A stretch of DNA of 15,418 nt from Roseibacillus sp. (lineage in GTDB: Bacteria; Verrucomicrobiota; Verrucomicrobiia; Verrucomicrobiales; Akkermansiaceae): contig CBDEUM010000023.1 of the NCBI GenBank assembly GCA_965242925.1, positions 1 through 15,418 of the forward strand. Reading direction: 5' to 3'. This document shows positions 1-13,368 of the stretch, piece by piece. The stretch's first letter is position 1, and every line of letters begins with the position of its first letter. The position numbers and the translations under genes are program-made. Under the pieces are notes generated by a model. The model had not been told where the DNA came from, made no database searches, and saw only the letters and a program-made list of their open reading frames with translations.

Positions 1-165
1 TATTTGCGGGCCTCTTCCATCGTCTCAACCTCTTCGCCTTTGCTATTCCAGTATTTCGCTGAAACCTCTTCGATAAGTTTTTTGATGTCTTTGGAGTCTA
101 GCGACTTCTCCCCAAACCCCCCGACCAGTAGCACGGCAAACAGCAGGACGAGTAGGGCCAGGCTC
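1..165 (-). pseudogene. Internally deleted member (L1) of the MORN_2/YwqK-like lipoprotein family; runs off the left edge
   Basis: Manual translation: ..LALLVLLFAVLLVGGFGEKSLDSKDIKKLIEEVSAKYWNSKGEEVETMEEARK, with the stop incomplete at the edge. The signal-peptide segment (lipobox Cys replaced by Phe) is fused in frame to the family C-terminus; there is no ATG at the expected position. Confidence 0.7.
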
Positions 166-256
166 TCTTCCGGATCCGGTCGCCTGCCTACGTGATGAGG
201 CAACCCCAAGCCTGTCTCCCGACTGGCGTAATGGGCAGCCCCTCATCGGCCTCCCT

Positions 257-1666
257 TCACCTCTGCCGGAGAAAGAGCCGCATCTCGCGATAGGTGATTA
301 CCGCGTCGAGTTCACGCATGAAGTCGCCGCCGTAAATTCCAACCGAATCCCTCGAACTGAACTCGGCCGACAGGATCCTCCGGTTTTCGATCAGGGTCTT
401 CCCAACTACCACGGACTTGAACTTGGTGACTGCAGCGGGAGCCCTGCCGCCAATGCCGTAAACCCACTGGTCCATGGCCCCTACTTCGCATCGATACCGA
501 TTGGCCAATTCGACATTGAAGAGACTTCCATCTGCTCCAGTGTCTACTAGGAATTTCGCATCATCACCATTCAGGCTTCCGTCCACGTAGATGTGGTTGC
601 CCTTTCGTTCGGTATCAAATGACTGGTAGCCGCGCATGGTGAGAAGATCCCTCACGGTGAGATCCTTGCAGTTCTTCTCGAATGCCACGGCGTCCTTGCT
701 CCACCGCCTCATGAGGAGTTCGTCCTCCGGTTTGAAGCGGTCTACGGTGAAGCCCCTCTTCTCGCCGTTGACCAGTTCGATGGTAATCCCGGTTCCCGAT
801 TCGTTCTTGGCCACCAGTTTGCCTCGGATCGTGCTTCCGTCCTTCAACTTGAAGATCCGGAAGTCAAACTGACTGTCCTTGTCCTCAGCCTCAGCGTCAA
901 CACCCTTCACCTCGGGCTTATCGCCAAGATCCGGGCGCAGGAAAATGAGACGTTCCCGGTAGGAAATGACCGCGTCGAGTCGCGCCAGAACGCCACCTCC
1001 GATAATGGCGTCTTCCTTCAATTTCGATCCTTCCGGAAGGCCATTGGTCAAATCCGTGCACAGGATCTTCTTGTCCAGAAGCAGCGTTTCTCCGAGCTGA
1101 ATCCTGTCCACCTTGGTGTAAGCCGCGGGGGCCGTCCCTCCCACACCGGCCACAACCTCATCGTATGGGCCCATCTTGCATCCGGCCTCCTTCGCAAAGG
1201 CATCATGCAGAATCGTGTTATGCGCCCCGGTATCGACCAGGAACCGCGCCTTCTTGCCATTCAGAAGACCGGGGATAATCAGGGAATTGTTGGCAAAGGT
1301 GAATTTGAACGACTCATATCCTCGTAGTTCAAGGAGTTCTCGCACCGTGAGAGTACGGCACTTCTTGAGGAAGATCTTCTTCAGTGCCGCCGAGGGAACC
1401 TCCGGTCGTATCCATGACTTGAGAAACTCCCGGTCCTTCCTGCTCAGCACCTTGAGAGGGACCTCGGCGGGACCCTCCCTGCCCTTGATCAGGAGGTTGA
1501 CTGTTGTGTCCGTCTTGGAAACCACGACGGCCTCGAGGGTCCTGCCCTTCGTGTCGGTGAAGGTACGATACTCCTCTGCCTGGGCCGAACCCAGTCCGGC
1601 AGTGACCACCAGAACTGCGAGCAGGAGGGCAAGTGCCCTTCCGGAAAGTGGGATAGCGGGCTTCAT
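257..1666 (-). CDS. Secreted aspartyl protease with two retropepsin-like domains, each preceded by an SHD1-like domain
   Basis: Signal peptide (..SAQA). Two FLVDTGA catalytic motifs with downstream IIGG/IYGG motifs. RTFTDTKGRTLEA..VPLKVLSRKDREFL is SHD1-like. Duplicated linker CxxLTVRxLLxxRGYxSF. Confidence 0.85.
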   Translation of the reverse strand: MKPAIPLSGRALALLLAVLVVTAGLGSAQAEEYRTFTDTKGRTLEAVVVSKTDTTVNLLIKGREGPAEVPLKVLSRKDREFLKSWIRPEVPSAALKKIFLKKCRTLTVRELLELRGYESFKFTFANNSLIIPGLLNGKKARFLVDTGAHNTILHDAFAKEAGCKMGPYDEVVAGVGGTAPAAYTKVDRIQLGETLLLDKKILCTDLTNGLPEGSKLKEDAIIGGGVLARLDAVISYRERLIFLRPDLGDKPEVKGVDAEAEDKDSQFDFRIFKLKDGSTIRGKLVAKNESGTGITIELVNGEKRGFTVDRFKPEDELLMRRWSKDAVAFEKNCKDLTVRDLLTMRGYQSFDTERKGNHIYVDGSLNGDDAKFLVDTGADGSLFNVELANRYRCEVGAMDQWVYGIGGRAPAAVTKFKSVVVGKTLIENRRILSAEFSSRDSVGIYGGDFMRELDAVITYREMRLFLRQR

Positions 1667-2925
1667 TTGAAATCCTGGCTTTTGATGAACTCGATCCAGT
1701 CAGTCTCAAACTCTTTGGCCGTCTTGAATCCGTAAAGCTTCGCCAGCTCAAGGGAAATAGGCATTGCTCCATCGTACTGGACTCGACGGATCATGTTGGC
1801 AAACGAGTTCAGGCGCTCCGGCGTGCTCTGCAGGTAGTAGGCGAACGAGTAACTCAGGACGATACTCTCCGGAGTCAGGTCCTTGACCTCTCTCCAGCCG
1901 AGCAGCTTTTCAAGATTTGGCTCCACCTTTCCCTTGCGCACCAGTTCGCGCAGGGTCTTGGCCCATTTCGTTCCGTCATCAAACCCCTTGGCCTTCACGA
2001 TCTCATCCTGGTCGTAAACCTCCGCATCAAGCAGACTCGTCTCGGTGTGCCCGGCCAGCTTGATCTCCTTGTAGTAGGCATGCCCGATCCTAAGGGCCAT
2101 GGCACCATCCTCCGCGTAGTCCGCGATGCCCCCGATAAACTCCGAGAGCAGGGTTCCGGAAAGGGAATGCGTCGGGAAGGCTCCAAAGACTTCGGTATAG
2201 CTGTTCTTGGTGTCGCCAATCTGGAAGGCCTTGGCAGTGCCAAAAATGTTCAATTTCTCAACAATGCTGTCCGGCATGTAAATGCTCTGGGAACTGGATT
2301 CTTCCCACAGCAAGCGCGCCCGGATCGCCACATCCCGCATATGCTCGCCCTCAAGGGTCAGAAGGTGGGCCTTGTACCAGTCGCCCAGCTTGGCGTAGGC
2401 CTTCTTGTCCTCCACGAGGAAGATGAGCTTGCGCCTGGCACCCCAGTCCTCCCGAAAGTTGACGTGCTGAAAGACCATGCCCCGCCACAGTCGCTCCGCC
2501 ACCTCGGCAACATCCATCGGGCGGATCTTTCCCTGTGTAATGACATAGAAGTGCTCCGTCTTGAGCATGTCATATTGCAGGTCGTCGTCCGTCCCGAGCA
2601 CGAACCTTTCCTTCACCCGTTCGAACGTTTTCGACATGTCACGGGCATCCTTCTCAGGCACACCCACCTCCGACTTCGTCACCACGCTCTGATCCGCCCC
2701 CCCGTATTCCACGAGGTAGAGGCGATCTACCAGGCTGAGATCCTCAATCTTGAGTGTAATGGTCCGAAGTTGGGGGGTAATGAGAACGGCCTCATCTCCT
2801 TCCACTCGCAATAGTAGGGCCGTCACGTCCGCTCCCTTCCGGGAGGTCCAGACCCGCTCCTCGGCCGCACTGGCCGGGCAACAGAGCAGCGCGCCCGCAG
2901 CGGTTATCGTTGCTAATTTTCGCAT
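1663..2925 (-). CDS. Secreted SHD1-domain protein with a possible DUF1570/peptidase MA-like C-terminal region lacking HExxH
   Basis: Likely start is ATG 2925 or 2931 (MRKLATITAAGALLCCPASA signal peptide) rather than 3003. RVWTSRKG..LKIEDLSLVDRLYL is SHD1-like. Its stop overlaps the ATG of the protease gene (ATGA). Confidence 0.75.
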   Translation of the reverse strand: MRKLATITAAGALLCCPASAAEERVWTSRKGADVTALLLRVEGDEAVLITPQLRTITLKIEDLSLVDRLYLVEYGGADQSVVTKSEVGVPEKDARDMSKTFERVKERFVLGTDDDLQYDMLKTEHFYVITQGKIRPMDVAEVAERLWRGMVFQHVNFREDWGARRKLIFLVEDKKAYAKLGDWYKAHLLTLEGEHMRDVAIRARLLWEESSSQSIYMPDSIVEKLNIFGTAKAFQIGDTKNSYTEVFGAFPTHSLSGTLLSEFIGGIADYAEDGAMALRIGHAYYKEIKLAGHTETSLLDAEVYDQDEIVKAKGFDDGTKWAKTLRELVRKGKVEPNLEKLLGWREVKDLTPESIVLSYSFAYYLQSTPERLNSFANMIRRVQYDGAMPISLELAKLYGFKTAKEFETDWIEFIKSQDFK

Positions 2926-3272
2926 CCGCATTTCCTGCGACGCTACTGAGTGAAATCCCATGATGTCGATGCTCTTTTTGGATAGCCTGCTACACCCGGA
3001 CAACGGGAGCTCAAAACTTGGGCTCCCGTGGCCCCTCTTCCTGGTGCCTCTAGAGGGCTTTCAACAAAGGGAACTTGTCGTTTCCTTTGGCCGCTCCGGG
3101 GGAAGAGGGAGACTTTTACGCGGATGGCAATCAGAGGAATTCTACTCCTGCAAACTGCAAACGAGCACGGATCTAAGGTCCTGGAACTCACAATACTTGA
3201 GTGGAGGCCGTGAGATAACTACTTCGCTCCAGACCGTGGACCATGCCGTCCCTGTAAGTTACTTCCGACCTG

Positions 3273-3326
3273 GGACAACCAATTATCCCCTGACCCAATC
3301 CACGCGGATCCGGGGTGAGGTTAGTT
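3273..3326. repeat. Element A, near-complete copy (imperfect hairpin)
   Basis: ggacaaccaattatcccctgacccaatcc-acgc-ggatccggggtgaggttagtt; lacks 4 G relative to the 6846 copy. Confidence 0.85.
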
Positions 3327-3495
3327 GAAGGCTCCTCAATCGTCTCAACCTCTTCGCCTTTGCTGTTCCAGTATCGCGGAAACCAGTTCGCCGTCTTTCA
3401 TGGTTCCTTCATACTCCTTCTGCCCGTTCTTGCGCCATTCGATATGAAGACCGTCCTTCACTCCGTCCTCGTAGGTGCCTTCCGACTTCTCCGAG
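3321..3495 (-). pseudogene. 3' fragment (L2) of MORN_2 lipoprotein, frameshifted
   Basis: EKSEGTYEDGVKDGLHIEWRKNGQKEYEGTMKDGELVSA, then a frameshift (gcg a tac vs gcg aaa tac) into YWNSKGEEVETIEE. TAA at 3321-3323 overlaps element A. Confidence 0.75.
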
Positions 3496-3502
3496 GCATC
3501 TA

Positions 3503-3631
3503 TTGTGTGGTTTTGTACCCAAACCCCCGAGAAAGGTTGCCGTCCTTGGCGCCATCGTTGGTATTCTGGCACTGCTCGGCATCGCCTTTATTATCTATGC
3601 ACTGGGGTGGGGGTATAGTTCCGGCCATTAG
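3503..3631 (+). CDS. Possible 42-aa single-TM peptide or 3' gene fragment
   Basis: TTG..TAG frame reads ..PKPPRKVAVLGAIVGILALLGIAFIIYALGWGYSSGH*; basic residues then a clean hydrophobic helix; no obvious RBS. Confidence 0.3.
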   Translation: MCGFVPKPPRKVAVLGAIVGILALLGIAFIIYALGWGYSSGH

Positions 3632-3692
3632 GTGCATACGAGGTTTTCACGATGGGCGACCCCTCATCCCTGCGCTGTCAAACCGCGGCACC

Positions 3693-3777
3693 GCACCCTG
3701 GTTCCTGCACCTTTGCAGCCTGTGGGTTGCCCCACCCTGCACCCTTAACCCTGATCCCCGCACCCTGTTTCCTGCAC
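3693..3777. repeat. Element D cluster (GCACCCTGKTTCCTGCAC x2 plus CCACCCTGCACC)
   Basis: Copies at 3693-3711 and 3760-3777; ccaccctgcacc at 3732-3743; the same motifs recur at 7955-8007. Confidence 0.7.
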
Positions 3778-3790
3778 TGGGATGGGTGGG

Positions 3791-3974
3791 CTATTCGGCG
3801 GATTCTTCCCGCGTCTCAACCTCTTCGCCTTTATCGTCAGCTGAATGGATTGATCCCCCTTCCGGAGAGGTCTGGCCAAGGAAGTGGAACATCTTGGCCG
3901 TCGAGGGTGTAAACGGCACACCCGGCAACTAGTAACGCGGCAAACAGCAGAAACAGCAGGACAAATATCTTCAT
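3791..3974 (-). pseudogene. Lipoprotein-family member (L3): signal peptide + short foreign middle + family C-terminus, frameshifted
   Basis: MKIFVLLFLLFAALLVAGC (with a duplicated ctgctgttt), then in a shifted frame ..SADDKGEEVETREESAE*. The 184-nt span is not a multiple of 3. Confidence 0.7.
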
Positions 3975-4026
3975 AGCACCGCGATTCCTAGCACAGCCCA
4001 GGCGCAGTCGGAAAGCGGGGAGAGGG
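3975..4026 (-). promoter_or_regulatory. Element C, upstream/promoter region of the lipoprotein family
   Basis: Shares agcacYgcgattcctagcacagcc with the 13156 copy and cccaggcgcag..aagcggggagaggg with the 9011 copy; lies directly before the ATG. Confidence 0.6.
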
Positions 4027-4082
4027 GCTTGTGGCTCCCGGGGGCGGCTCAAGCTTGTTCCTGCTCATCAGCAGGCGTGTGA

Positions 4083-4118
4083 TTGACTGCCCGGAATGGT
4101 TCCCGTATGAAATACGGG
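4083..4118 (+). promoter_or_regulatory. Sigma70-like promoter of the symporter with an overlapping inverted repeat
   Basis: TTGACT(4083)-N17-TATGAA(4106); CCCGTAT-gaa-ATACGGG (4102-4118) overlaps the -10 box; ATG at 4126. Confidence 0.5.
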
Positions 4119-4125
4119 TCGCGCC

Positions 4126-5670
4126 ATGCCTGAAACGAATTTTACTGCCCTTGACTGGATCATTGTCGGCGCCTACCTGCTGGGCACGGTGGCCATCGGG
4201 CTGTGGGTCAACCGCTACATCAAGGGCATGGGGGATTTCCTGGTGGCCGGGCGCTCGTTGCGCACCCGGCTTGGGATTGCAACCATGATCGGTTCCGAGC
4301 TTGGCCTGGTGACGGCGATGTTTGCTGCCCAGAAGGGGTTTGCCTCCGGGTTTGCCGCATTTCATATCGGCTTAATGGCGGGCATCGCGACGCTGGTGGT
4401 GGGCATTACCGGCTTCATCGTCGTGCCGTTGCGACGCATGGGGGTAATGACGATTCCCGAGTTTTACCAGAAGCGTTTTGGCAGTCGACGGTTGCGCATC
4501 TTCGGCGGGTTTGTTCTGGCGGCGGCGGGTATCCTCAATATGGGTCTGTTCCTGCGTGCTGGTGGGGAGTTCGTTGCCGGTATTACCGGCATAGAGTGGG
4601 AGGCGGTGAAGTGGGTGATGAGCGCGATGATCCTGCTGGTACTCGTCTACACCGCGCTGGGCGGAATGGTCTCGGTGGTGATTACCGATTACGTGCAGTT
4701 TGTGGTGCTCTCTCTCGGCTTGCTGCTGGCCTGTGTCCTGGCGGTGGTCAAGGTCGGTTGGTCGAACCTTGTCACCGGGGTCGAGAAAATCCACGGCGAC
4801 GGCGGCTTTGATCCTTTTGCTGCAGACGGTGTTGGCGGCTCCTACGTGGGATGGATGTTTTTTCTGGGAATTATTTCCTGTGCGGTGTGGCAGACGGCGG
4901 TGATGCGTGCCTGCGCGGCGGAAAGCGTCGCGGTGGTCAGGCGCATGTATATCTGGTCGTCACTGGGCTTCATGATCCGTTTCATGATTCCGCAGTTCAT
5001 TGGAATTTGTGCGCTGGTTTATTTTTTCCAGGGTGGGAATGAGACGTTTTTTGATGCAACAGGCACAGTGTCAGGGGACTCGTCGGTGACGATGCGCGCG
5101 ATGCCGGTGTTCCTTGGCCAATTGCTGCCGATGGGGCTTATCGGTCTGGTGGCTGCGGGCATGATCGCGGCCTTCATGTCGACCCATGACACCTATCTAT
5201 TGTGCTGGGCCTCGGTGCTGACCGAGGACGTTGTCAACCCGTCCCGTGGCGGCAGGATGTCGCAGCAGGCAAGGTTGCTGCTGACCCGTGTGCTGCTCTT
5301 CGTGATTGCTGGATTCCTGGTGATCTGGGGACTCTGGTATGAACTTGGACAGGACCTGTGGGACTATATGGCTGTCTCCGGGTCGATTTATTTTACCGGC
5401 GCCTTCGCGATCCTCCTGCTCGGGCTTTACTGGAAGGGTGCCACTGCTGCCGGGGCTTTCACGGCCTTGAGTATTGGGCTGTTGGCGGTGGTCGGGCTCA
5501 AACCGGTGCAGGAATTGCTGCATATTGCAGATTTCCTTAAGGACAATGAGATCAAAGGTGAACACATAGGCTTGTCGCTGGCCGCATTTTCCCTGGTGGC
5601 GATGGTGCTTGTGTCGCTGGTTACCTCTAATGGCTGCCGGGATAGCCAAACCCAAGAACACGGAGAATAG
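4126..5670 (+). CDS. Sodium:solute symporter (SSS) family transporter
   Basis: LDWIIVGAYL..DFLVAGRSL; MTIPEFYQKRFG; YTALGGMVSVVITDYVQ; AAFMSTHD; many TM helices. Confidence 0.93.
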   Translation: MPETNFTALDWIIVGAYLLGTVAIGLWVNRYIKGMGDFLVAGRSLRTRLGIATMIGSELGLVTAMFAAQKGFASGFAAFHIGLMAGIATLVVGITGFIVVPLRRMGVMTIPEFYQKRFGSRRLRIFGGFVLAAAGILNMGLFLRAGGEFVAGITGIEWEAVKWVMSAMILLVLVYTALGGMVSVVITDYVQFVVLSLGLLLACVLAVVKVGWSNLVTGVEKIHGDGGFDPFAADGVGGSYVGWMFFLGIISCAVWQTAVMRACAAESVAVVRRMYIWSSLGFMIRFMIPQFIGICALVYFFQGGNETFFDATGTVSGDSSVTMRAMPVFLGQLLPMGLIGLVAAGMIAAFMSTHDTYLLCWASVLTEDVVNPSRGGRMSQQARLLLTRVLLFVIAGFLVIWGLWYELGQDLWDYMAVSGSIYFTGAFAILLLGLYWKGATAAGAFTALSIGLLAVVGLKPVQELLHIADFLKDNEIKGEHIGLSLAAFSLVAMVLVSLVTSNGCRDSQTQEHGE

Positions 5671-5673
5671 ACA

Positions 5674-5850
5674 ATGAACGGATGGAGCTTTTTTTGGGGA
5701 GGGTTGTTACTGGTTACACTCGTATTCTATAGTGTGATGGTTGTGTATGTGTCACTTGGCGGTTTCAAGGACATCAGGCAGATGTTCCGGTCCCTTTCCG
5801 GCAATGGTGAAAATAAGCCTGAACAGGAAGGAGATGACGAGAGTCATTAA
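5674..5850 (+). CDS. 58-aa single-TM protein, probable symporter accessory subunit (absent from the ORF track)
   Basis: MNGWSFFWGGLLLVTLVFYSVMVVYVSLGGFKDIRQMFRSLSGNGENKPEQEGDDESH*; ATG 3 nt after the symporter stop, with GGAG upstream. Confidence 0.8.
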   Translation: MNGWSFFWGGLLLVTLVFYSVMVVYVSLGGFKDIRQMFRSLSGNGENKPEQEGDDESH

Positions 5851-5869
5851 CCTGCCCCTGCCGGTAATT

Positions 5870-5944
5870 TTGCACTCCCACCTTCCCTGGTTCCTCAGTC
5901 TCCAGGAACCCCGGCTTGAAAAAGGAGAATCCTGGCAGTAATCC
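5870..5944 (+). repeat. Element B, full copy (hairpin + promoter-like)
   Basis: ttgcactcccaccttccctGGTTCCTcagtctccAGGAACCccggcTTGAAA-N17-TAATCC. Confidence 0.85.
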
Positions 5945-5986
5945 CTCGTGGTGCCGGAGCGTGACTTTTTATCGAGGAGTTCATCA

Positions 5987-6766: not shown

Positions 6767-6776
6767 CCCAATTGGT

Positions 6777-6822
6777 GGGGAAAGTGGGTTGCGCCCCCAC
6801 CTTCCCCGGTTCCAGGCTGAGG
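6777..6822. repeat. Element B 5' part forming a hairpin, followed by an inverted B loop
   Basis: ggggaaagtggg-ttgcgcc-cccaccttcccc stem (1 mismatch), then ggttcc-aggctgagg (reverse complement of cctcagcct). Confidence 0.7.
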
Positions 6823-6845
6823 GAGTGATTAAGAAGAAGAGGAAG

Positions 6846-6885
6846 TGATCCAATCCACGCGGATCGGGGCGGGGTGAGGTTAGTC
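6846..6885. repeat. Element A copy
   Basis: tgatccaatcc-acgc-ggatcggggcggggtgaggttagtc. Confidence 0.85.
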
Positions 6886-6903
6886 GTCAGTCTCCTGGAG
6901 CGA

Positions 6904-7911
6904 TTATTTGGCCCACTGGTAGACTCTCACGTAGTCGACCTCCATGACCTGGGGAAACCGGCTGGCCGGGATCCGGTCGGCTTTCTGGTCTTCGTTTTCG
7001 AAAAAGCGGCCGTCGACCGCGACATTGAGAATGAGGTGGAAGGGCTGGTCGTAGGGTGCGGAGGGGTTCTTTCGCGCACTCGCCGACCACCATTCGGCCT
7101 TTCTGCGTGTCCTCCACTTCACACCATCAACGAACCACGAGATTTCATCCACGGTCCACTCCAGTGCGTAGACATGAAAATCCTCGGCGGCATTCCTGGC
7201 GGGAAACCGGTAGGTGTGATCGAGGTGAACGTTGTCGGGCCATTTCCCTCCGAAGTGAAGGGCTCCCAGGGTTTCATGAACCTTGCTGCCACGGGATTCA
7301 ACGATGTCAATCTCGCCACCGGCGGCCCATCCACCATAGGGAGAATGGGTGGGCATCATCCAGATGGCGGGCCAGATCCCCTGGCCGTCCGGCATCCTGG
7401 CACGGATCTCAAACCGTCCAAATTTCCAGTCACCGCGTTTCATGGTGCGCAACCGGGCAGAAGAGTAGGGCTGTGTCTTTCCGTCGCTGGTGGTGTGAGA
7501 GTCGCGGTATACCGCAATACAGAGGGATCCGTTCTTTACGAAGCTGTACTTGGGTTCAGTGCGGTAGGCTTGCCGTTCATTGTTGCCACCACCATAGTTG
7601 TTTTCTTCGTGCGCCCACCTGCGGAAGTCAATCTGGTCACCGTCGAATTCGTCGGCCCATACCTGGACCCACCCATCGACTGGAGTGTGCAGGCGGTAAT
7701 CGCCGACAGGTTGGTAAGTGGACCAGGTTCTCCCGGTGCCCCGGATGACCGTTCCGATGTTACTCCATCTGTTTTCGCGTTTTACCTGGAGTTGATGAAA
7801 GGATCCCTTGGCAGTCTCAAAGCTCAGCTTGACGGCCGGGATGCTTTGGAGAGCCGGCTCGGCTGAGAGGAGGATGGGGACAAGAACAGGAAGGAAAAGG
7901 CCAGAGAGCAT
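6904..7911 (-). CDS. Secreted glycoside hydrolase family 16 (laminarinase/beta-1,3-glucanase-like)
   Basis: WPAIWMMP..WAAGGEIDIVE catalytic motif; YSSARL; FHVYALEW; MEVDYVRVYQ; signal peptide. Confidence 0.93.
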   Translation of the reverse strand: MLSGLFLPVLVPILLSAEPALQSIPAVKLSFETAKGSFHQLQVKRENRWSNIGTVIRGTGRTWSTYQPVGDYRLHTPVDGWVQVWADEFDGDQIDFRRWAHEENNYGGGNNERQAYRTEPKYSFVKNGSLCIAVYRDSHTTSDGKTQPYSSARLRTMKRGDWKFGRFEIRARMPDGQGIWPAIWMMPTHSPYGGWAAGGEIDIVESRGSKVHETLGALHFGGKWPDNVHLDHTYRFPARNAAEDFHVYALEWTVDEISWFVDGVKWRTRRKAEWWSASARKNPSAPYDQPFHLILNVAVDGRFFENEDQKADRIPASRFPQVMEVDYVRVYQWAK

Positions 7912-7954
7912 GCCGAATCCCTACCACTTGCAAAGAGCAGGGGCCATAGCCAAA

Positions 7955-8007
7955 CCACCCTGCACCGCTACAGCCTACTCCGTGCACTGCACCCTGGTTC
8001 CTGCACC
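7955..8007. repeat. Element D copy
   Basis: ccaccctgcacc at 7955; gcaccctggttcctgcacc at 7989-8007, identical to 3693-3711. Confidence 0.7.
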
Positions 8008-8187
8008 AATAGAGTGGTTAAGGAGGTAGAAAATCGGGATTACGAAATTGCGTCCATGAATGACGAGTCCCAGTTTGGTCCGGAGTTCCACATCATCGAG
8101 ATGGTCGGCGCCGTTTTCCCTCCAGGACCACTCCCGTCACTACCAGGATCTTGGGGCTCTGTTTCATGGCCAAGCAGCCTTGCCAGG

Positions 8188-8214
8188 AAAACGCGTATTC
8201 GAACGCGAATACAC
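8188..8214 (-). terminator. Probable intrinsic terminator of the MORN lipoprotein gene
   Basis: Minus strand gtgtattcg-cgtt-cgaatacgc followed by gtttt, about 22 nt after the stop codon. Confidence 0.45.
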
Positions 8215-8236
8215 AACTTCCCCGTCCCGCTGCCTT

Positions 8237-9010
8237 TTACCTCAAAGGCCCGGCAGGTCTCCCATCCGGCAGCGATTCTACTACATCGCCACTGCTGTTC
8301 CAGTAGTTGGCGATAATTATCTCCCCGCCCCGATAGGTGATTTCCTGTTGCTTCTGGCCGTTCTCATGCCAGCGCACCCACACTCCCTCCTGGTTGCCGA
8401 CGTTGTAGATTCCTGCAATCATGCTCTGGCCGTTAGGCCACGACTGCGCGAATGGGCCATGCAAGACGCCTTCGCGGTAGTTCCGCTCTCCCGCCTTCTC
8501 GCCATTCTCGTGCCATCCAATCCAGGCCCCGTTTGACTTGTTGTCCCTGAAGTTCCCCTCCAACGATCGCTGCCCGTTCTGGTGCCAACGCAGCGACAAT
8601 CCGTTTTTTCTACCGTTCTGCAACTGGTCCAGGCTTTGCACCCGGCCTTCGGAGGACACCTGTTTCACCCAACCCGTGTAGGCGGTCTGCTGATCCTTCT
8701 CGTAGTAGTTGCCATCATCCCGCAATTCGAGGGCCTGCCCTCCCGGAACCGCTTCCTCAAGAAGTCGGTCAACCTCACGCTCACTAAGCGATTTCTCCTT
8801 TGGTTCCGGCGCGGGCTCCCCCTTCGGTTCCGGTTCCGGCGCAGCTTCCTCCTTGGGCTCCGGCGCGGGCTCCTCCTTCGATTCCGGTTCCGGTGCAGGT
8901 TCAGGCTTGGTCTCCGGCTTCGCCCGGGACTTGGGTTCCTCCTTCGGTTGTTCCTTCTCCCCGCACCCGACGATCAACAGCGCGGCAAACAGCAGGAGGG
9001 CTTTCTTCAT
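8237..9010 (-). CDS. Lipoprotein with Pro/Glu/Lys linker and MORN-variant (MORN_2, YwqK-like) repeats; the only intact family member (L4)
   Basis: Lipobox LIVGC; PEPK-rich linker; ~24-aa repeats WHxNGxK..GxxxG; C-terminal YWNSSG. Confidence 0.9.
   Translation of the reverse strand: MKKALLLFAALLIVGCGEKEQPKEEPKSRAKPETKPEPAPEPESKEEPAPEPKEEAAPEPEPKGEPAPEPKEKSLSEREVDRLLEEAVPGGQALELRDDGNYYEKDQQTAYTGWVKQVSSEGRVQSLDQLQNGRKNGLSLRWHQNGQRSLEGNFRDNKSNGAWIGWHENGEKAGERNYREGVLHGPFAQSWPNGQSMIAGIYNVGNQEGVWVRWHENGQKQQEITYRGGEIIIANYWNSSGDVVESLPDGRPAGPLR
8790..8955 (-). repeat. Coding low-complexity tandem repeat (EPAPEPK-type)
   Basis: Repeated ggttccggcgcgggctcc / ggttccggttccgg units encoding PEPAPEPESKEEPAPEPKEEAAPEPEPKGEPAPEPK. 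Confidence 0.8.
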
Positions 9011-9057
9011 TCCTGATACCTACCTGCCCCAGGCGCAGGGGACAAGCGGGGAGAGGG
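9011..9057 (-). promoter_or_regulatory. Element C copy
   Basis: Minus strand TTGTCC-N17-TAGGTA then tcagga-ATG; similar to the 3975 and 11679 copies. Confidence 0.6.
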
Positions 9058-9060
9058 TAG

Positions 9061-9088
9061 CCACGCGGATCGGAGCGGGGTGAGGTTA
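9061..9088. repeat. Element A, right half
   Basis: ccacgcggatcggagcggggtgaggtta; broken near the hairpin loop and joined to element C. Confidence 0.8.
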
Positions 9089-9157
9089 CTTCTTGGCTTC
9101 TTCCGCCGTCTCAACCTCTTCGCCTTTACTGTTCCAGAATTTCGCGGAGATCAGTGT
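9086..9157 (-). pseudogene. C-terminal-only fragment (L5) of the lipoprotein family
   Basis: TLISAKFWNSKGEEVETAEEAKK*; element B lies about 20 nt upstream; no family N-terminus. Confidence 0.75.
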
Positions 9158-9176
9158 CGCTGACCTGCTCGAAAAG

Positions 9177-9248
9177 TTGCACCCCCACCTTCCCCGGTTC
9201 CTCAGCCTCCAGGAACCCCGGCCTGAGAAAGCAATTTACTTAGCAATA
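9177..9248 (+). repeat. Element B, full copy
   Basis: ttgcacccccaccttccccGGTTCCTcagcctccAGGAACCccggcctgagaaagcaatttacttagcaata. Confidence 0.85.
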
Positions 9249-9331
9249 GCAATCGACTCCACGGAACAGCTGAGCGAGGTCTGAGTCGGCAGAAATAGCG
9301 AGGCGGGCCTGCGGATCTCGATCACATTGGT

Positions 9332-9461
9332 GGCAGTTCGAGAAGGATTGTAATCATTCGTGTCCGATAATCTGCGATACCGCGATGTTTTCTTGCGGCA
9401 GTTCGAGAAGGATTGTAATCATTCGTGTCCGATAATCTGCGATACCGCGATGTTTTCTTGC
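9332..9461. repeat. Perfect 65-bp tandem duplication
   Basis: 9332-9396 is identical to 9397-9461 (ggcagttcgagaaggattg...gttttcttgc). Confidence 0.95.
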
Positions 9462-9641
9462 CCGAATATTCCACCGGTGGGACAGGAACGCCGGCGTTGT
9501 CAGGGTGTCACCTCATCGTGCGTAAGCCTCCTTCTCCAAATGCGGAAATTGGCTTGCCGCCTATCGGGCTCTTTACCCATGCTAAGAGTTGGTGTCGCGT
9601 TGCGACGGGACCGGGGAAATAACACTCGAGAAACCCTGCTC

Positions 9642-11093
9642 ATGAAAACGACATTTGGAACAACGACGATCTCGGCGACTGCGATTTGGCTCCTTCACAC
9701 CCTGGCACCGGCCGTCATTGTGGGATTCGAGGCGGAATCGGGAAGCACACCGACCGGGGTTAGCTACCGGGTGCAAAGTGACCCCGGCGCCTTGGGGGGC
9801 CAGTACATCGATACCGACCATCGGGACGCGAAGGATCCCTTTGGCGATTTCGCCGTCTTCCGCCAGTACTCGGTCACCCTCCCAGCGGGCACCTACGATC
9901 TCTGGGGACTGATCTACGCCCCGACGACGTTCAGCTATGACCCCAACTTCAGTGACGATCCGGATTCCAACAACGCGTTGGCTGCCTACGAGAGCGACAG
10001 CTTCTTCGTCCCCTTGACGTTTGGCGGCGATCCGGCCGTCGATCAAGACCGGGGGAACGGCTACGGGAGCTCCGGCCGGTTCGATGGCTCGGGCTCTCCG
10101 GCCAGGTCCAACGTCCATGATAATTGGGTGTGGATCAACCTGACCGACGGAACGGACCTCAACGGATTGGGCCCGAGTTCCGGCACGCTCGACAACGTGG
10201 CCTCCTACGCCACCGCTGGGGGCACGGAGAGCTTCACGCTCATGAGCCGGGAGGGAGGGCTGCGCCATGATTGCTTCGCCTTCGTGACGGACGGAGAACT
10301 GCCGACCGAGGAGGAACTGAATCTGGCGGTCCTCGAGTCGCCAACGAGGGGACCGATGCTTCTCAATGTGGAACGCTTCGGTCCGGGAGGCGAGTCCATC
10401 CGCATCACCTGGGACACCACTCCCGGCCGCAAATACGCCATCGATACCGGAACCGACTTGCAGAACTGGGACGTTGAGGTCGCGACCGAAATCGTGGCCA
10501 CGGCGGATACCACGGTCTACGAGGAACTGATTTCGAACCTTCCGCTCAACGGCCCGGAGGACTACTTCCGTGTGCGGCCCCTTGTTCCGCCGCCCGTCCT
10601 GATGGACGATTTCGAGAGCGGTCAGGGTGCATGGACCGTCGGGGTTGAGGACGCCACCGGCAACACCAACTGGGAGTTCGGAGCACCAAGCGGCGCCGTT
10701 CCGGGCGCCCCGGCGGCCGCCAACAGTGGAACCAATTGCTTTGGCACTAACCTGGCTGCGGCTTACGATGAGGACACGGAGATCTGGCTGCGATCCCCGG
10801 AGCTTGATCTCACCGGGGCGGCGGGGGCCACCCTCAGCTTTTTTCACTACCGCGACATCGAAGAAGGGTTCGACTCCGGGGCGGTGCGGGTCCTCGATGC
10901 CTCTGACAACTCGGAGCTTGGAGTGATGGGAGACGTCATTGACGGCTCCTCCGACGGGTGGGAGCAGTTCGCGAGGAGCCTTCCGCCAGCCGCCCTCGGC
11001 AAGGCGGTGGTCCTCGAATTCCGATTCCTCTCGGACGAGATCAATAACCTGGCGGGATGGTATATCGACGACGTGAAAGTAACCTTGCGGTGA
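9642..11093 (+). CDS. Secreted multidomain protein: CBM-like N-terminal domain, small beta linker domain, and C-terminal jelly-roll domain (cleaved-adhesin/MAM/InhA-associated type)
   Basis: Start moved to ATG 9642 (signal peptide ending ..LAPA). FEAESG..SREGGLRHD; ITWDTTPGRKYAI..DLQNW..YFRV; DDFESG..WEFGAP..LRSPELDL..GWYIDDV. Confidence 0.8.
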   Translation: MKTTFGTTTISATAIWLLHTLAPAVIVGFEAESGSTPTGVSYRVQSDPGALGGQYIDTDHRDAKDPFGDFAVFRQYSVTLPAGTYDLWGLIYAPTTFSYDPNFSDDPDSNNALAAYESDSFFVPLTFGGDPAVDQDRGNGYGSSGRFDGSGSPARSNVHDNWVWINLTDGTDLNGLGPSSGTLDNVASYATAGGTESFTLMSREGGLRHDCFAFVTDGELPTEEELNLAVLESPTRGPMLLNVERFGPGGESIRITWDTTPGRKYAIDTGTDLQNWDVEVATEIVATADTTVYEELISNLPLNGPEDYFRVRPLVPPPVLMDDFESGQGAWTVGVEDATGNTNWEFGAPSGAVPGAPAAANSGTNCFGTNLAAAYDEDTEIWLRSPELDLTGAAGATLSFFHYRDIEEGFDSGAVRVLDASDNSELGVMGDVIDGSSDGWEQFARSLPPAALGKAVVLEFRFLSDEINNLAGWYIDDVKVTLR

Positions 11094-11128
11094 GGGTTCG
11101 AGATTAGCTCAGGGAAAGCCTCGTTTCT

Positions 11129-11155
11129 GCGGATCGGGGCGGGGTGTGGTTAGTC
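11129..11155. repeat. Element A, right half
   Basis: gcggatcggggcggggtgtggttagtc, broken at the loop. Confidence 0.8.
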
Positions 11156-11164
11156 GAGGGCCTC

Positions 11165-11214
11165 GGGTCTCCCTACGAACCCGGCCTGAAAAAGCGATTT
11201 ACTAGCAGTAATTT
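11165..11214 (+). repeat. Element B, 3' variant (promoter-like)
   Basis: gggtctccctacgaacccggcCTGAAA-N17-TAATTT. Confidence 0.85.
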
Positions 11215-11313
11215 CAACCTTGTTAGCGTATGAGTGAGAAAGAAGCAGAGCTTGGAGACTTAAAGAAAAAATAAACCTCGCTTCTTCACTAAAAAAATTA
11301 AATTAGCCGCATA

Positions 11314-11631
11314 ATGAAAAATATAATCTCATCAATACTTGTAGTAGTAGGTTTGTCTTCCTGTGCAACAGATCATGCAGGGTGGCCTACAGGAAAACTC
11401 CTCTGGTCTACAAATCACATCTCAACCGACGATAGAGAAGTCCAACGGGTTGGCTTACAAATCTCAGTCGCTCAGCAACAAGGTTATGCCATCGGTTTTG
11501 GCGCAACTAGAGCTGGAGCCTTAGGTGATGCTGGGAAAAGTCTGCCGAAAGGAGCTATCAGGCTTAAAGTTTCCTACACTAAAGAAGGTAACAAGTGGAA
11601 ATGCACGATTAAGTACAAACCAAAGAAATAA
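11314..11631 (+). CDS. Small AT-rich lipoprotein of unknown function
   Basis: MKNIISSILVVVGLSSC lipobox; 105 aa; visibly AT-richer than its neighbours. Confidence 0.75.
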   Translation: MKNIISSILVVVGLSSCATDHAGWPTGKLLWSTNHISTDDREVQRVGLQISVAQQQGYAIGFGATRAGALGDAGKSLPKGAIRLKVSYTKEGNKWKCTIKYKPKK

Positions 11632-11666
11632 CTCACCCTGACTCAATCCACTCGGATTGGGGCGGG
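11629..11666. repeat. Element A copy overlapping the stop codon (TAAC)
   Basis: taactcaccctgactcaatcc-actc-ggattggggcggg. Confidence 0.8.
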
Positions 11667-11678
11667 ACAGCCATCACC

Positions 11679-11708
11679 CCCCAGGCGCAGGGGGCAAGTG
11701 GTCAGAGG
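11679..11708 (-). promoter_or_regulatory. Element C copy with no lipoprotein gene attached
   Basis: ccccaggcgcagggggcaagtggtcagagg matches 9027-9056 at 26/30 positions. Confidence 0.65.
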
Positions 11709-11793
11709 CTTTGATGTGGCATTTTCACCCGGCCGGTTTACCCTTCCAGGCCATGCAGCAGGCGTCGTTCAGGTGTATTTCCGCCCGGGCCCT

Positions 11794-11846
11794 GGGCCTC
11801 CCTACGAACCCGGCCTGAAAAAAAAGCGATTTACTAGCAGTGATCT
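11794..11846 (+). repeat. Element B, 3' variant; direct repeat of 11165-11209
   Basis: gggcctccctacgaacccggcctgaaaaaaaagcgatttactagcagt; one substitution and A8 instead of A5. Confidence 0.9.
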
Positions 11847-11865
11847 TCTATTTTATCCCTGAAGC

Positions 11866-12753
11866 ATGAAACCGCCTCCTCTCTACTGGATCAAGGTCAG
11901 GTCTGAAAGAGAGGATATCGACCTGAAGTGCTGGGGGTGGTCAGACACCAGCCTCGACGAGGCCCGGGAGAACGGTCAGAAGCGTTGCAAGCAGGCCCTC
12001 GCCCGGTGGGACGAAAACCATTCCCTGGACAAATATCCCTACGGGGTCTCGCGCCCTCTCCGGGAAAAAGCACTTGAACAATGGAATCAGGATGACGGGT
12101 CCCTGCAAGCTATCGTCACCATCAACGCTTACGGATGCAGGGTGCTCAATTGCGCTAACGTCATGTTCGTCGATGTCGATTTTGGAGAGCCTATGTGGGC
12201 GCGCGGAGTGAACCCGGGCTGCCTCCTCGGCTGGCTTTTCCCCAGACAAGACATTCGTAAAGACACTGAAGACAATCGTGAGGCCTTCAACGCGGAGAAG
12301 GAGGCAAGTGCCCTCGCCCGGCTCCAGGCTCTGGTCACTCGCGTTCCCGGGATCGGGGCACGGGCCTACCACACCAAGGCCGGCCTTCGTTATCTCATGA
12401 CCCATGCGCCCATGGACCCCCTGGCTGAAAACAGCTCCCAGATCATGGAGGAGCTTGATGCCGACCCCTACTACATCAAGTTATGCCGCGCCCAGAAGTC
12501 CTTCCGTGCTCGCCTCACCCCGAAGCCCTGGCGTTGCGGGCTTCCAAAGATACCCCACCGCTACCCGTGGGATGCCCAGCAGGAACACGAAGTAGAGAAC
12601 TGGATAGCGACCTATGAGGCCACCACGAGAGACTTTGCTAGCTGCAAGCTGATAGGGCACTACGGCAACCCGGAGATTCATCCCGAGATCACCAGAACCA
12701 TGGCCTTTCATGACAAAGTGACCAGGGCCGAGTCCGGGATTGCCTTGGCTTGA
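11866..12753 (+). CDS. Conserved hypothetical protein (295 aa)
   Basis: Long ORF with conserved-looking motifs MFVDVD, YHTKAGLRYL and DPYYIKLCRAQKSFRARLTPKPWRCG. Confidence 0.8.
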   Translation: MKPPPLYWIKVRSEREDIDLKCWGWSDTSLDEARENGQKRCKQALARWDENHSLDKYPYGVSRPLREKALEQWNQDDGSLQAIVTINAYGCRVLNCANVMFVDVDFGEPMWARGVNPGCLLGWLFPRQDIRKDTEDNREAFNAEKEASALARLQALVTRVPGIGARAYHTKAGLRYLMTHAPMDPLAENSSQIMEELDADPYYIKLCRAQKSFRARLTPKPWRCGLPKIPHRYPWDAQQEHEVENWIATYEATTRDFASCKLIGHYGNPEIHPEITRTMAFHDKVTRAESGIALA

Positions 12754-12788
12754 GCAACCATCTGGTCAACCCAGCATGCGCTTCCAAA

Positions 12789-12809
12789 TTGCACCCCCAC
12801 CTTCCCCGG
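12789..12809 (+). repeat. Element B, 5' part
   Basis: ttgcacccccaccttccccgg, identical to 9177-9197. Confidence 0.8.
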
Positions 12810-12890
12810 GCCACGGGAACCCTACAGGTCTCTCAGACCATCGAAAGGCCACATCACCCCGGGGAAAAAATACAAAAGGGGTGAAACCTA

Positions 12891-12930
12891 GGATAACCGA
12901 TTATTCCCTGACCCAATCCGCGCGGATCGG
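12891..12930. repeat. Element A, left arm and core
   Basis: ggataaccgattattccctgacccaatcc-gcgc-ggatcgg; matches the 3273 copy. Confidence 0.85.
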
Positions 12931-12986
12931 CTGCTAGGGAATCGCTTTTTCGGGCCGTGTTTCCTGGAGGCTGAGGAGCCGGGGAA
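12931..12986 (-). repeat. Element B in inverted orientation, fused directly to element A
   Basis: Reverse complement reads ttccccggctcctcagcctccaggaaacacggcccgaaaaagcgattccctagcag. Confidence 0.85.
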
Positions 12987-13155
12987 CCTGGCATGTGGCA
13001 TTGAAGGGGAATTGAGGAAACGCTTCTTCTGTAGGCTTAACCTCTTCACTCGGTGCCGTTGGCTTCTCACTGACCGACTCCGAACCTTTGGATGACGACT
13101 TCTCGCCACACCCCGCGACCAGTAGCGCGGCAAACAGCAGGACGAGAACCTTCAT
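12934..13155 (-). pseudogene. N-terminal-only lipoprotein-family member (L6) reading into element B
   Basis: MKVLVLLFAALLVAGCGEKSSSKGSES..PTEEA, then a tail PRLLSLQETRPEKAIP that is translated element B; no MORN repeats. Confidence 0.7.
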
Positions 13156-13195
13156 AGCACTGCGATTCCTAGCACAGCCGATGCGCGGGTGGCAA
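13156..13195 (-). promoter_or_regulatory. Element C variant
   Basis: Minus strand TTGCCA-N18-TAGGAA; the proximal 24 nt match the 3975 copy with one mismatch. Confidence 0.55.
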
Positions 13196-13368
13196 TGGTG
13201 CCACTGGGTAGACAGAGTTGGTGCCTCACTGATGCCTTTGGATCACGAAACTAGTAGCAGGTACCAATTAGAAAAATACTAGGCTTCTGGTAAAACTAAT
13301 TAGAAACACCACACATTGAATTGATTTGTTGAGAAGACCGTGCGCCGATAGGTTCGAGCTATGCAGGG

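Follow-up and report, generated by a model that had tools for sequence, protein, structure and literature searches.

Unrelated genes framed by short repeats in Roseibacillus: a probable recombination hot spot in a flexible island on a broken lipoprotein array

Integron cassette arrays adjoin an IntI integrase gene and possess an attI site, a Pc, and attC sites. They present unrelated genes in a run, each bounded by short common sequences, and their content varies among relatives. BIMEs are lineage-specific mosaics of short extragenic motifs that occur in multiple copies. In marine bacteria, additive flexible genomic islands occupy sites flanked by conserved sequence; close relatives carry different gene sets there, and these sets pass between species at high identity. 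At the orphan T6SS immunity genes of Vibrio cholerae and at orphan rhs/CDI 3′ ends, a constant-ended multigene locus gathers truncated orphan pieces as the DNA of relatives displaces its resident parts; a conserved stretch serves as the anchor while the other end is joined illegitimately (PMC5361080, PMC3240628). Correia repeat enclosed elements of Neisseria are short interspersed elements beside genes and can supply a promoter (PMC2649163).

The window, meaning the whole 15.4-kb stretch analyzed here, is contig C23 of Roseibacillus genome G000, a 42-contig bin of 4.58 Mb that is 90% complete. It was compared with congeners (G005-G018 and others); since all the genomes compared are bins from metagenomes, contigs that are chimeric or wrongly binned could make exchange between species look more frequent than it is. 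Genome-wide, there are 71 module matches: 12 to element A, 24 to element B, 11 to the upstream module P, 11 to the signal peptide SP, 8 to the conserved C-terminus CT, and 5 to the intergenic repeat D5. This one contig holds 25 of the 71. A preliminary description had framed four plus-strand genes between an upstream B and a downstream A, and all four are indeed framed in this way, with the repeats located where it had placed them. Its view of the cargo as unrelated in function and unequal in composition also holds: the genes encode five different protein types (an SDR, a GH16 enzyme, a secreted choice-of-anchor-J protein, a 105-aa lipoprotein, and a 295-aa protein of no known family), and GC is 0.42 at 11201-11600 versus 0.60-0.65 at 9601-11000.

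The MORN-repeat lipoprotein genes of the minus strand have a 28-nt tail after their stop codon, and element A corresponds to this tail. Every copy on the contig lies on the minus strand: 3282-3325, 6846-6884, 9059-9090, 12900-12931, a divergent copy at 11631-11669, and a half copy at 11128-11154 that ends within the element. The copies include bits of lipoprotein coding sequence with the stop codon, which identifies them as gene remnants rather than insertions. A runs antisense to each of the four plus-strand cargo genes; their frame is therefore positional and provides no co-oriented cassette boundary. The module order CT-A-P-SP recurs on the minus strand along the contig, and an intact array of four such lipoprotein genes (270-357 aa) with the same modules is found in G005:C114.

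Pieces of the lipoprotein unit are interspersed along the contig, as had been noticed earlier, in six copies, of which five are truncated or frameshifted fragments. The sole intact family member is a 257-aa MORN_2 lipoprotein (8237-9010) with its upstream P at 9008-9058, together spanning 8237-9058 on the minus strand. At the contig start, a 5′-truncated minus-strand fragment (1-167) retains CT sequence at 1-73 and signal-peptide sequence at 97-167 and joins the aspartic protease block discussed below at a fusion point near 138-150. Beyond that block, the same strand continues with a pseudogene at 3282-3640 with a frameshifted MORN-like middle, a conserved C-terminal piece (3323-3391), and A (3282-3325); two D5 copies (3662-3714 and 3729-3782, within 3662-3782); and a small frameshifted gene at 3792-4027 (P 3973-4027, signal peptide 3901-3974, C-terminal piece 3792-3852). 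Further along, A at 9059-9090 and a C-terminal fragment at 9088-9157 form the minus-strand tail (9059-9157) of a unit cut by the next insertion. The truncated minus-strand unit at 12789-13209 consists of P (13154-13209), a signal peptide (13091-13155), and B (12915-13004) fused directly to A (12900-12931); its tail terminates in the 21-mer head of B, reverse-complemented (12789-12809), and C30:341.8-342.2k holds a copy of the arrangement.

Element B is a separate element of about 70 nt with sharp ends that is present across the genus, mainly in 5′ intergenic regions of flexible genes. Copies were placed by nhmmer at 5866-5950 and 9173-9263 on the plus strand and at 12915-13004 on the minus strand, and a variant without the 21-mer head lies at 11141-11229 and 11770-11856 on the plus strand. 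The head, TTGCACCCCCACCTTCCCCGG, occurs four times in the window at no more than three mismatches (0.00 expected from 200 shuffles) and 22 times genome-wide at no more than four (3-6 in three shuffled genomes). B always ends within about 4 nt of one base, regardless of the sequence that follows. B may act as a promoter. Downstream of 20 of 44 copies, an ORF in the same orientation and of ≥250 aa begins within 350 nt, and a divergent ORF of that size lies on the other side of 17 of 44, with a few loci counted repeatedly; this crude test gave no orientation bias, and B contains no match to the strict sigma-70 consensus.

The two elements also meet in composite modules. The 21-mer head at 6789-6809 (plus strand) precedes A at 6846-6884 (minus strand), and this 6789-6884 module is found in other genomes of the genus. 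The half A at 11128-11154 (minus) overlaps the B variant at 11141-11229 (plus; 11128-11229 in all), and 11631-11856 combines A (11631-11669, minus), a P fragment (11675-11710, minus), and a B variant (11770-11856, plus), and here 11684-11753 duplicates the sequence that precedes a pfk-like gene at C30:343.4k. Between these modules lie cargo 4 (9173-11093, plus), in which B is followed by a perfect 65-nt tandem duplication (9332-9461) and the choice-of-anchor-J gene (ORF called from 9360, likely start near 9642), and cargo 5 (11314-11631, plus), the AT-rich 105-aa lipoprotein gene with a GC of about 0.42.

Two cargo genes have ancestral loci elsewhere in the genome. The GH16 glycoside hydrolase (cargo 3; 6904-7911, minus), directly upstream of which is a D5 repeat (7958-8011, minus), matches its orthologues over little more than the gene itself, homology ceasing near the stop codon at one end and roughly 20 nt ahead of the ATG at the other. 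All 11 congeners fetched carry GH16 in one conserved core context, equivalent to G000:C38:42-56 kb (both flanks match in nine, a single flank in two). The ancestral locus in G000 retains a 64-nt 3′ stub alone, 87.5% identical to the window copy; it differs at 8 of 64 bases and is thus separate DNA. The 295-aa gene (cargo 6; 11866-12753, plus) is homologous to its orthologues over a span that opens 25 nt before the ATG and closes about 35 nt beyond the stop. All three congeners with a DNA match carry it flanked by the orthologues of C12:212035 and C12:213763, a slot that holds a 516-aa ORF in G000. GH16, the 295-aa gene, and the aspartic protease pair are each single-copy in G000, on C23 only, and occupy three different conserved core loci in congeners. 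The ancestral loci of relatives gave no module matches (0 in L003-L012, L019-L032, and L038-L040), and in G015, G016, and G018 no B precedes the 295-aa gene. Sequence comparison supports gene capture into a repeat-rich stretch. Cargo boundaries are tight, with whole genes and at most 20-120 nt of flank; neither this nor the fixed B end is predicted by random illegitimate joining, which counts against the hot-spot reading given below.

Other cargo appears to come from a sister species. Cargo 1 (257-3003, minus) comprises a 469-aa clan AA aspartic protease (257-1666) and a 446-aa protein without a family (1663-3003), and block 138-3035 is 94% identical to G012:C165. The pair adjoins the orthologue of C13:94.2-95.19k in seven of eight congeners; G012 and G000 are 78% identical at that orthologue, compared with 94% for the window copy of the pair. 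The junction keeps the final bases of the G012-type neighbor and joins them to antisense lipoprotein signal-peptide sequence at the common AGGACGAG, a microhomology of 8 nt. These features support import of the pair from a G012-like donor. Repeats had been proposed as landing pads, and recombination between repeated modules is plausible; the aspartic protease block, however, has no visible homologous anchor at either end, so the evidence there falls short of strict homology-facilitated illegitimate recombination, a further point against the hot-spot reading.

Cargo 2 (4126-6766, plus) contains a sodium:solute symporter (4126-5670), a 58-aa membrane ORF (5674-5850), B (5866-5950), and the SDR oxidoreductase (5948-6766). 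Its block (4015-6799) recurs at 96% identity in G012:C269, with other neighbors on both sides. The two genomes diverge on one side at CCCCCA within the 21-mer and on the other at GCGGGGWGAGGGG, which is common to the ends of A and P. G012:C235 unites blocks located in G000 at C30:327.8k, C30:305.9k, and C4:67.5k, and A/P modules occupy the joints. The suggestion of shuffling is borne out by G000 and G012, in which block order differs with breakpoints at repeats, as is the imprecision of those breakpoints: junctions fall at heterogeneous places with 4-13 nt of homology, two at different points of the 21-mer and one inside signal-peptide coding sequence.

The locus resembles additive flexible islands in that island blocks share 94-99% identity between species with only 72-85% identity in their core, and in that an 11.2-kb insert with B-led genes (G000 C39:155,857-167,041) sits between flanks that adjoin each other in G012 and G015. 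It differs in also taking up the genome's own core genes and in being seeded on a decaying lipoprotein array. It shares with the orphan T6SS/rhs/CDI arrays a multigene locus with truncated orphan pieces and displacement by incoming DNA of relatives. In contrast to those arrays, its incoming units are unrelated housekeeping-type or secreted-protein genes rather than new alleles of one system, two apparently come from its own core loci, and a homologous anchor is not demonstrated on the contig.

The preliminary description had also proposed an integron-like platform, a reading that fails here: no IntI-type integrase was found on or near the contig and no IntI gene in the assembly, no conserved attC-like structure was found, the junctions are heterogeneous, and A is part of interrupted lipoprotein genes rather than of the cargo. 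Despite the general likeness to cassette arrays, the contig lacks an adjacent IntI, attI, and Pc, its gene orientations are mixed and its junctions imprecise, and its A is an antisense remnant of another gene without a conserved attC-like hairpin. A true cassette system in which an unrecognized site-specific enzyme moves single transcription units into arrays, using the ends of B (the 21-mer head and a CTAGCAG(TAAT) tail) or the core of A as attachment sites, is unlikely. It would account for the tight cargo boundaries, for B ends that are sharp in more than 15 sequence contexts, for B subtypes that recur across species otherwise about 75% identical, for identical B copies within genomes (three in G008:C141, three in G014:C31), for the co-oriented B-gene-B-gene arrays of G014:C31, for a B that abuts a 5′-truncated DUF1501 gene in G014, and for three B-A fusions with an identical joint, although these fusions are copies of a single event. 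The window encodes no recombinase, as stated earlier, and the genome search for integrase, IntI, and RAYT genes found neither IntI nor RAYT. The assembly holds no dedicated recombinase gene for the locus: its three tyrosine recombinases (two Xer-size, one phage-type at C30:199.8k) and its one rve all lie off C23, and RAYT, RVT_1, resolvase, and IS110 gave 0 matches each in this 90% complete assembly, with no serine recombinase or reverse transcriptase gene. Among 20 genomes of the genus surveyed, only four carry Y1 transposases, and B-rich G008 and G014 carry none. Nor do the block junctions of G000 and G012, scattered within modules and in coding sequence, fit an attachment site, and B has no consensus fold on either strand.

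It is unlikely, too, that B (and perhaps also A) belongs among small mobile elements such as MITEs, REPs, or Correia repeats and inserted beside genes after their arrival, so that the frame reflects an intergenic preference with no role in capture. The discrete ends of B fit this idea, as do its 24 copies in G000 and more in congeners of 5-5.7 Mb, its near-identical copies within genomes, its tandems in G008:C141 and G009:C48, and its absence upstream of the 295-aa gene in three congeners. Against it, no inverted terminal repeats, target duplications, or conserved target were seen by eye, no transposase co-varies with B, and A copies carry lipoprotein coding sequence and a stop codon. REP/BIME elements and REPINs are likewise mosaics of several short extragenic motifs in many copies, but B lacks a palindromic consensus, the A hairpin forms in only about half of its copies, G000 has no RAYT, and A, P, SP, and CT are recognizable pieces of a gene unit. 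B is short, interspersed, and gene-adjacent like the Correia elements, with putative promoter activity, but shows no inverted terminal repeats. An assembly or binning artifact, with the contig stitched via repeats or derived from another organism in the sample, is very unlikely. The contig begins within a repeat, its GC is 57.3% versus about 60% for the rest of this incomplete bin, and independent metagenome contigs from Logan stop at every repeat, with alternative joints among repeats such as 6876->9218 and 9048->12834. However, the repeats measure only 25-100 nt and match imperfectly (80-97% identity), and Logan contigs from four runs of four studies reproduce 5733-6879, 6853-7954, 8082-9008, 9186-11207, 11793-12861, and 13117-15418, giving each cargo with flanking module pieces at ≥99% identity. 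The three relocated units are missing from the ancestral loci of the same bin, and the C38 stub is distinct from the C23 copy. The long-range order of blocks is not reproduced by these contigs; its lack of independent confirmation weighs against the hot-spot reading, as do the missing orientation bias and sigma-70 match of B. Least credible is an ordinary paralogous family in a stable locus, with A and B as the conserved terminator and promoter of related genes and no capture or shuffling. A and P do flank a real lipoprotein multigene family (11 signal-peptide and 8 C-terminal matches in G000), and the modules are conserved across the genus; yet the framed genes belong to unrelated families, block order is unequal between G000 and G012, and three cargo units sit at other conserved loci in congeners without modules, which already contradicts this reading.

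The favored explanation, to which we assign a probability of about 0.6, is a recombination hot spot within a flexible island, not an integron, in which a lipoprotein array was broken and genes were inserted at the breaks. The island of this Roseibacillus-like marine verrucomicrobium would have been founded on a minus-strand tandem array of small MORN-repeat lipoprotein genes, each unit ordered as upstream module P, signal peptide, MORN repeats, conserved C-terminus, and the 28-nt tail A. Recombination at short homologies would have broken this array repeatedly, and whole transcription units would have entered at the breaks: GH16 and the 295-aa gene probably from the genome's own core loci, and the aspartic protease pair and the SSF-SDR block probably from a sister species. 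The [B]-gene-[A] pattern would then arise because B-led plus-strand units were inserted into a minus-strand array, so that downstream of each insertion comes the A tail of the interrupted lipoprotein unit. The joining itself would be the work of the host's general recombination and repair functions, possibly acting on DNA taken up from relatives.

Read along the minus strand, the lipoprotein unit opens with P, an upstream module. A lipoprotein signal peptide bearing a lipobox comes next, then MORN-type repeats and a conserved C-terminus (…WNSKGEEVET.EEA), and A closes the unit. The A core is TAACCTCACCCCGCCCCGATCCGCGTGG, and its first bases are the stop codon of the lipoprotein gene. A second intergenic repeat, D5, lies between some lipoprotein units. 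Pieces of the unit are interspersed along the contig, as the preliminary description had noted; there are six copies, and only that at 8237-9010 (257 aa, MORN_2) is intact. Its nearest named record comes from a Roseibacillus sp. MAG and shares 66% amino-acid identity, which places the source organism among the marine Verrucomicrobiota. Of the other minus-strand copies, that at 1-167 is truncated at its 5′ end, those at 3282-3640 and 3792-4027 are frameshifted, that at 9088-9157 is reduced to the C-terminus, and in that at 12934-13155 a signal peptide runs into junk sequence. In the congener G005, contig C114 carries a tandem array of four such genes, intact and with the same modules. A role of the fragments as silent donor cassettes for antigenic variation was rejected, as they represent the conserved ends of the gene and not its variable middle.

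The candidate hairpin in A is weak (RNAalifold −2.9, only ~2 sd below column shuffles), and of 21 copies, 9 have no 3′ arm; therefore, compensatory changes in this hairpin are not relied on. Contigs from three sequencing runs (X1, X2, and X6) join 3267 to 3413, leaving out A and the lipoprotein C-terminal piece; this could reflect variation within the population or an assembly path that passes through a different copy. The A-P intergenic region contains G runs on the plus strand (GGGG…GGGG…GGG…GGGG) at 9028-9085 and 3997-4050, where a four-stranded DNA structure favouring breakage is conceivable.

Profile matches place A, always on the minus strand, at 3282-3325, 6846-6884, 9059-9090, 11128-11154, 11631-11669, and 12900-12931, and B on the plus strand at 5866-5950, 9173-9263, 11141-11229, and 11770-11856, with a further minus-strand copy at 12915-13004. 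Four copies of the 21-base B head are present in the window, where none is expected. Both repeats are real and lie where they had been reported. Six module profiles yield 71 matches in the whole source genome, 25 of which fall on this 15.4-kb contig and most of the others at C30:305-343k and C34:307-313k. The genes framed by the repeats are indeed unrelated and differ strongly in composition: an SDR oxidoreductase, a GH16 enzyme, a choice-of-anchor-J secreted protein, an AT-rich 105-aa lipoprotein, and a 295-aa protein without a family. The [B]-gene-[A] frame holds as an observation, but every copy of A on the contig is antisense to the four plus-strand cargo genes.

B is ~70 nt long and sharply bounded, by (T/C)TGCACCCCC… at the 5′ end and by …CTAGCAG, to which TAAT is often added, at the 3′ end. 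Beyond either end, the sequence is unrelated from copy to copy, and the end is constant within a few bases even where B abuts a truncated gene in the congener G014 or an A element on this contig. The source genome has 24 matches to B, some outside islands, and larger congeners have more. Copies can be identical within one genome, and the same subtypes are found again in other species. RNAalifold on 23 of 30 copies found no consensus pairs on either strand, inspection by eye of more than 20 ends found neither terminal inverted repeats nor target-site duplications, the marks of a MITE or Correia-like element, and no orthologous site, empty or filled, was found for B alone. A crude orientation test based on ORFs gave 20 versus 17 of 44, with no clear bias, and B fails a strict sigma-70 scan. 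An 11-8-11 inverted repeat of the Xer/pdif-like kind is present in one B subtype only and is lacking in the others. Variable short tandem repeats occur at the 3′ end of B just upstream of genes (TAGCAAT ×2-3, CAAT ×5, and TAGCAGT ×2), namely at 9228-9247 in the window and, in further stretches, at L115:2140-2185, L116:1230-1440 and 5100-5180, and L113:100-140; these could shift promoter spacing in the style of phase variation. Among the matches listed for Roseibacillus genomes and Verrucomicrobia intergenic repeats, in the portions of the literature available, neither B nor A is described.

The GH16 gene has a conserved position in the genus. All 11 congeners fetched share the context of G000:C38:42-56 kb in the source genome; both flanks match in nine, and one flank matches in the two whose contig ends there. 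At the C38 locus itself, GH16 is reduced to a 64-nt 3′ stub that differs at eight bases from the copy on this contig, which is the only GH16 of its type in the genome. Its homology to the orthologues begins near the stop codon and ceases ~20 nt 5′ of the ATG; outside this stretch lie D5 at one flank and, at the other, A with a remnant of a lipoprotein 3′ end. Similarly, the 295-aa gene lies between orthologues of C12:212035 and C12:213763 in all three congeners with a DNA match, and in the source genome this slot is taken by a 516-aa ORF of another kind. That ORF (G000:C12:212125-213675) has a twin-arginine-like start and appears sulfatase/DUF1501-like by eye. Homology of the 295-aa gene starts 25 nt upstream of its ATG, exactly at the stop codon of the ancestral upstream neighbour, and ends ~35 nt beyond its own stop; its joint with B shows TGAT microhomology.

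The Asp-protease pair adjoins the orthologue of C13:94.2-95.19k in seven of eight congeners. It is 94% identical to its counterpart in the congener G012, and the neighbour gene is only 78% identical between G012 and the source genome. The junction at ~138-150 retains the last bases of the G012-type neighbour, and the shared word AGGACGAG joins them there to antisense lipoprotein signal-peptide sequence; no shared sequence is seen at the right end of the block (3035). The pair was thus imported from a donor resembling G012 and was joined illegitimately. G012 has the SSF-SDR block (4015-6799) at 96% identity, with different neighbours on both sides. Divergence between the two genomes starts at CCCCCA, within the 21-mer, at one end and at GCGGGGWGAGGGG, a word common to the ends of A and P, at the other. 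The ends of this block and of the blocks on contig C235 of G012 lie in shared modules, and the module profiles have no matches in the ancestral-locus stretches of relatives. Overall, the sequence shared at the junctions is 4-13 nt long, and the junctions differ in position, some falling within coding sequence, which agrees with the reported imprecision of the breakpoints. Microhomology of a few bases where foreign DNA meets resident DNA is a feature of homology-facilitated illegitimate recombination, and it is present here. Such recombination also calls for a homologous anchor at the far end of the incoming DNA; the block ends in shared modules may provide one, and the right end of the Asp-protease block shows none.

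The same pattern is found at other loci of the genus. G012:C235 joins blocks whose counterparts in the source genome are on C4 and at two places on C30 separated by 22 kb; A and P are present at the joints, and identity is 94-98% versus 72-85% in the core flanks. An 11.2-kb insert with B-led genes at G000:C39:155857-167041 separates flanks that are adjacent in G012 and G015, and content between conserved flanks also varies at the C34:307k array relative to G012:C179. Variable content between conserved flanks is thus established at C39 and C34:307k and not at the present contig, whose ends lie in repeats. The C39 insert carries two copies of B and choice-of-anchor-J genes, and it takes the place of ~215 nt in G012 or 485 nt in G015; neither of its ends shows repeats. 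Further B-led units reach 95-99% identity between species with a far more distant core, and these values suggest very recent exchange or mis-binned contigs. A B-led 4.6-kb stretch at G000:C22:283000-287619 is 99% identical to G010:C411, and a pfk-like gene at G000:C30:342300-343235 is 95-96% identical to G004:C25, G008:C191, and G011:C35; core DNA in both comparisons is ~72-76% identical. The C30:304-324k island, followed across the genus, contains a conserved cluster of 7 kb flanked by modules, with no further relocation resolved there.

All genomes compared are metagenome bins, and an array stitched together by assembly through its repeats is an unlikely rival explanation. The independent Logan contigs do stop at every repeat and show alternative joints among the repeats, so the block order derives solely from the original assembly; since none of them bridges a repeat, they neither confirm nor refute it. 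However, the repeats are short and imperfect, and independent assemblies of four runs, each from a different study, contain each cargo gene with module pieces on both sides at an identity of at least 99%. One such contig, matching 6853-7954, consists of A, GH16, and the GH16 5′ flank. In addition, the GH16 gene, the 295-aa gene, and the Asp-protease pair are missing at the core loci of the same bin and are single-copy on this contig. The strongest cases for exchange are G012:C165 and G012:C235, single contigs in which diverged core sequence and near-identical island sequence occur together.

The source bin comprises 4.58 Mb in 42 contigs and is 90% complete, and the array is one entire contig, with a GC content of 57.3% versus ~60% for most of the others. 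Twenty sequencing runs from 13 studies, mostly of sea water, contain it wholly or in part. Across the whole window, B included, Rfam gave no matches at E up to 1. A consensus promoter scan found four promoter-like sites versus 5.4 expected and did not pick up B, and a terminator scan found 16 terminator-like sites versus 16.1 expected. A plus-strand ORF for a PQQ-like beta-propeller fused to a methyltransferase domain (13441-15417) runs off the contig end and has no DNA match in 30 other genomes among the matches listed; a contig of one run continues ~2.8 kb past this end and reaches another copy of B. A 58-aa hydrophobic ORF on the plus strand (5674-5850), directly 3′ of the symporter gene and kept in G012 (L002:2188-2364), is probably a small transporter subunit. 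A perfect 65-nt tandem duplication (9332-9461) separates B from the probable start of the secreted-protein gene at ~9642; it is collapsed to one copy in Logan contigs of three of four runs, which may reflect a real variant or an assembler effect.

The integron-like nature proposed in the preliminary description was not upheld, because the integrase, attC, and orientation tests all fail. An integron has an IntI-type gene adjoining its array, and this is absent here. Its attC sites are imperfect palindromes in cassette orientation, whereas the A copies are antisense to the plus-strand cargo and their hairpin is weak. Integron cassettes are co-oriented and mostly promoterless under a common promoter, whereas the cargo lies on both strands, as the mixed orientation first described implies, and each plus-strand gene has its own upstream B. 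The window is also free of recombinases, as had been stated; the three tyrosine recombinases detected in the 90% complete bin with PF00589, the family profile used, all lie off the contig. Two are of Xer size, and the third is a 409-aa phage-type integrase (Phage_int_M) at C30:199.8k, 100 kb from the nearest island. A single rve-type integrase lies on another contig, and a reverse transcriptase (RVT_1), a serine recombinase, and an IS110 transposase are absent from the assembly. Retro-transfer of mRNA as a cause of the tight cargo ends was rejected, as the assembly has no RVT_1. The repeats recall BIMEs and Correia elements; however, a REP/BIME-REPIN system needs RAYT and short imperfect palindromes, and the source genome has no RAYT (PF01797) match and B no consensus fold. 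Y1 transposases (PF01797; IS200/IS605-type) occur in 4 of 20 genomes of the genus (17 matches in G010, 10 in G017, and 7 in G009, all three large congeners, and 2 in G007) and are absent from the B-rich G008 and G014. Homologues of ComEC and DprA are present, which says little because they were also matched in 10-11 of 14 control genomes.

With no dedicated recombination enzyme found in the assembly, the proposed reading is that the repeated modules would have recombined with each other, with microhomology-mediated illegitimate joining in addition and with part of the joined DNA coming from congeners. Plus-strand B-led units would have landed in a minus-strand lipoprotein array, and the [B]-gene-[A] frame would then appear with no need for A to be a cassette boundary. 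Two features fit this reading poorly: cargo is cut nearly exactly at gene boundaries, and B ends within a few bases of one position. The 5′ precision could come from selection for expression behind a putative B promoter. A site-specific or structure-directed process is given roughly one chance in eight. Such a capture platform, an unlikely idea, would be new; it would lift single transcription units from core or sister-species DNA behind the portable, promoter-like B into a sacrificial lipoprotein array, by an unrecognised enzyme or structure-directed repair, and its edges would be the ends of B and A. Under the favoured reading of module recombination and illegitimate joining, the array is somewhat like additive flexible islands and like arrays that grow by displacement and homology-facilitated illegitimate recombination. 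This reading resembles a model put forward for arrays of orphan immunity genes in Vibrio cholerae (PMC5361080).

In this genus of marine Verrucomicrobia, assemblies are fragmented throughout by two new repeat families, B and the A/P set. The usual view of genomic islands is that they gather accessory genes of foreign origin. In the present array, three core units with conserved positions across the genus have left their loci and share a single repeat-rich stretch of 15 kb. They were excised at nearly exact gene boundaries and lie beside blocks exchanged between species at 94-99% identity. Such relocation of core genes into one array is unusual, and the evidence for it comes from metagenome bins. 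If upheld in closed genomes, it would offer a natural and tractable case in which to study how decaying multigene arrays and short repeats channel gene relocation in the absence of a dedicated recombinase, and how a gene first turns into a portable unit. If the capture-platform reading were true, the array would be a natural, observable case of the first making of 'cassettes'.
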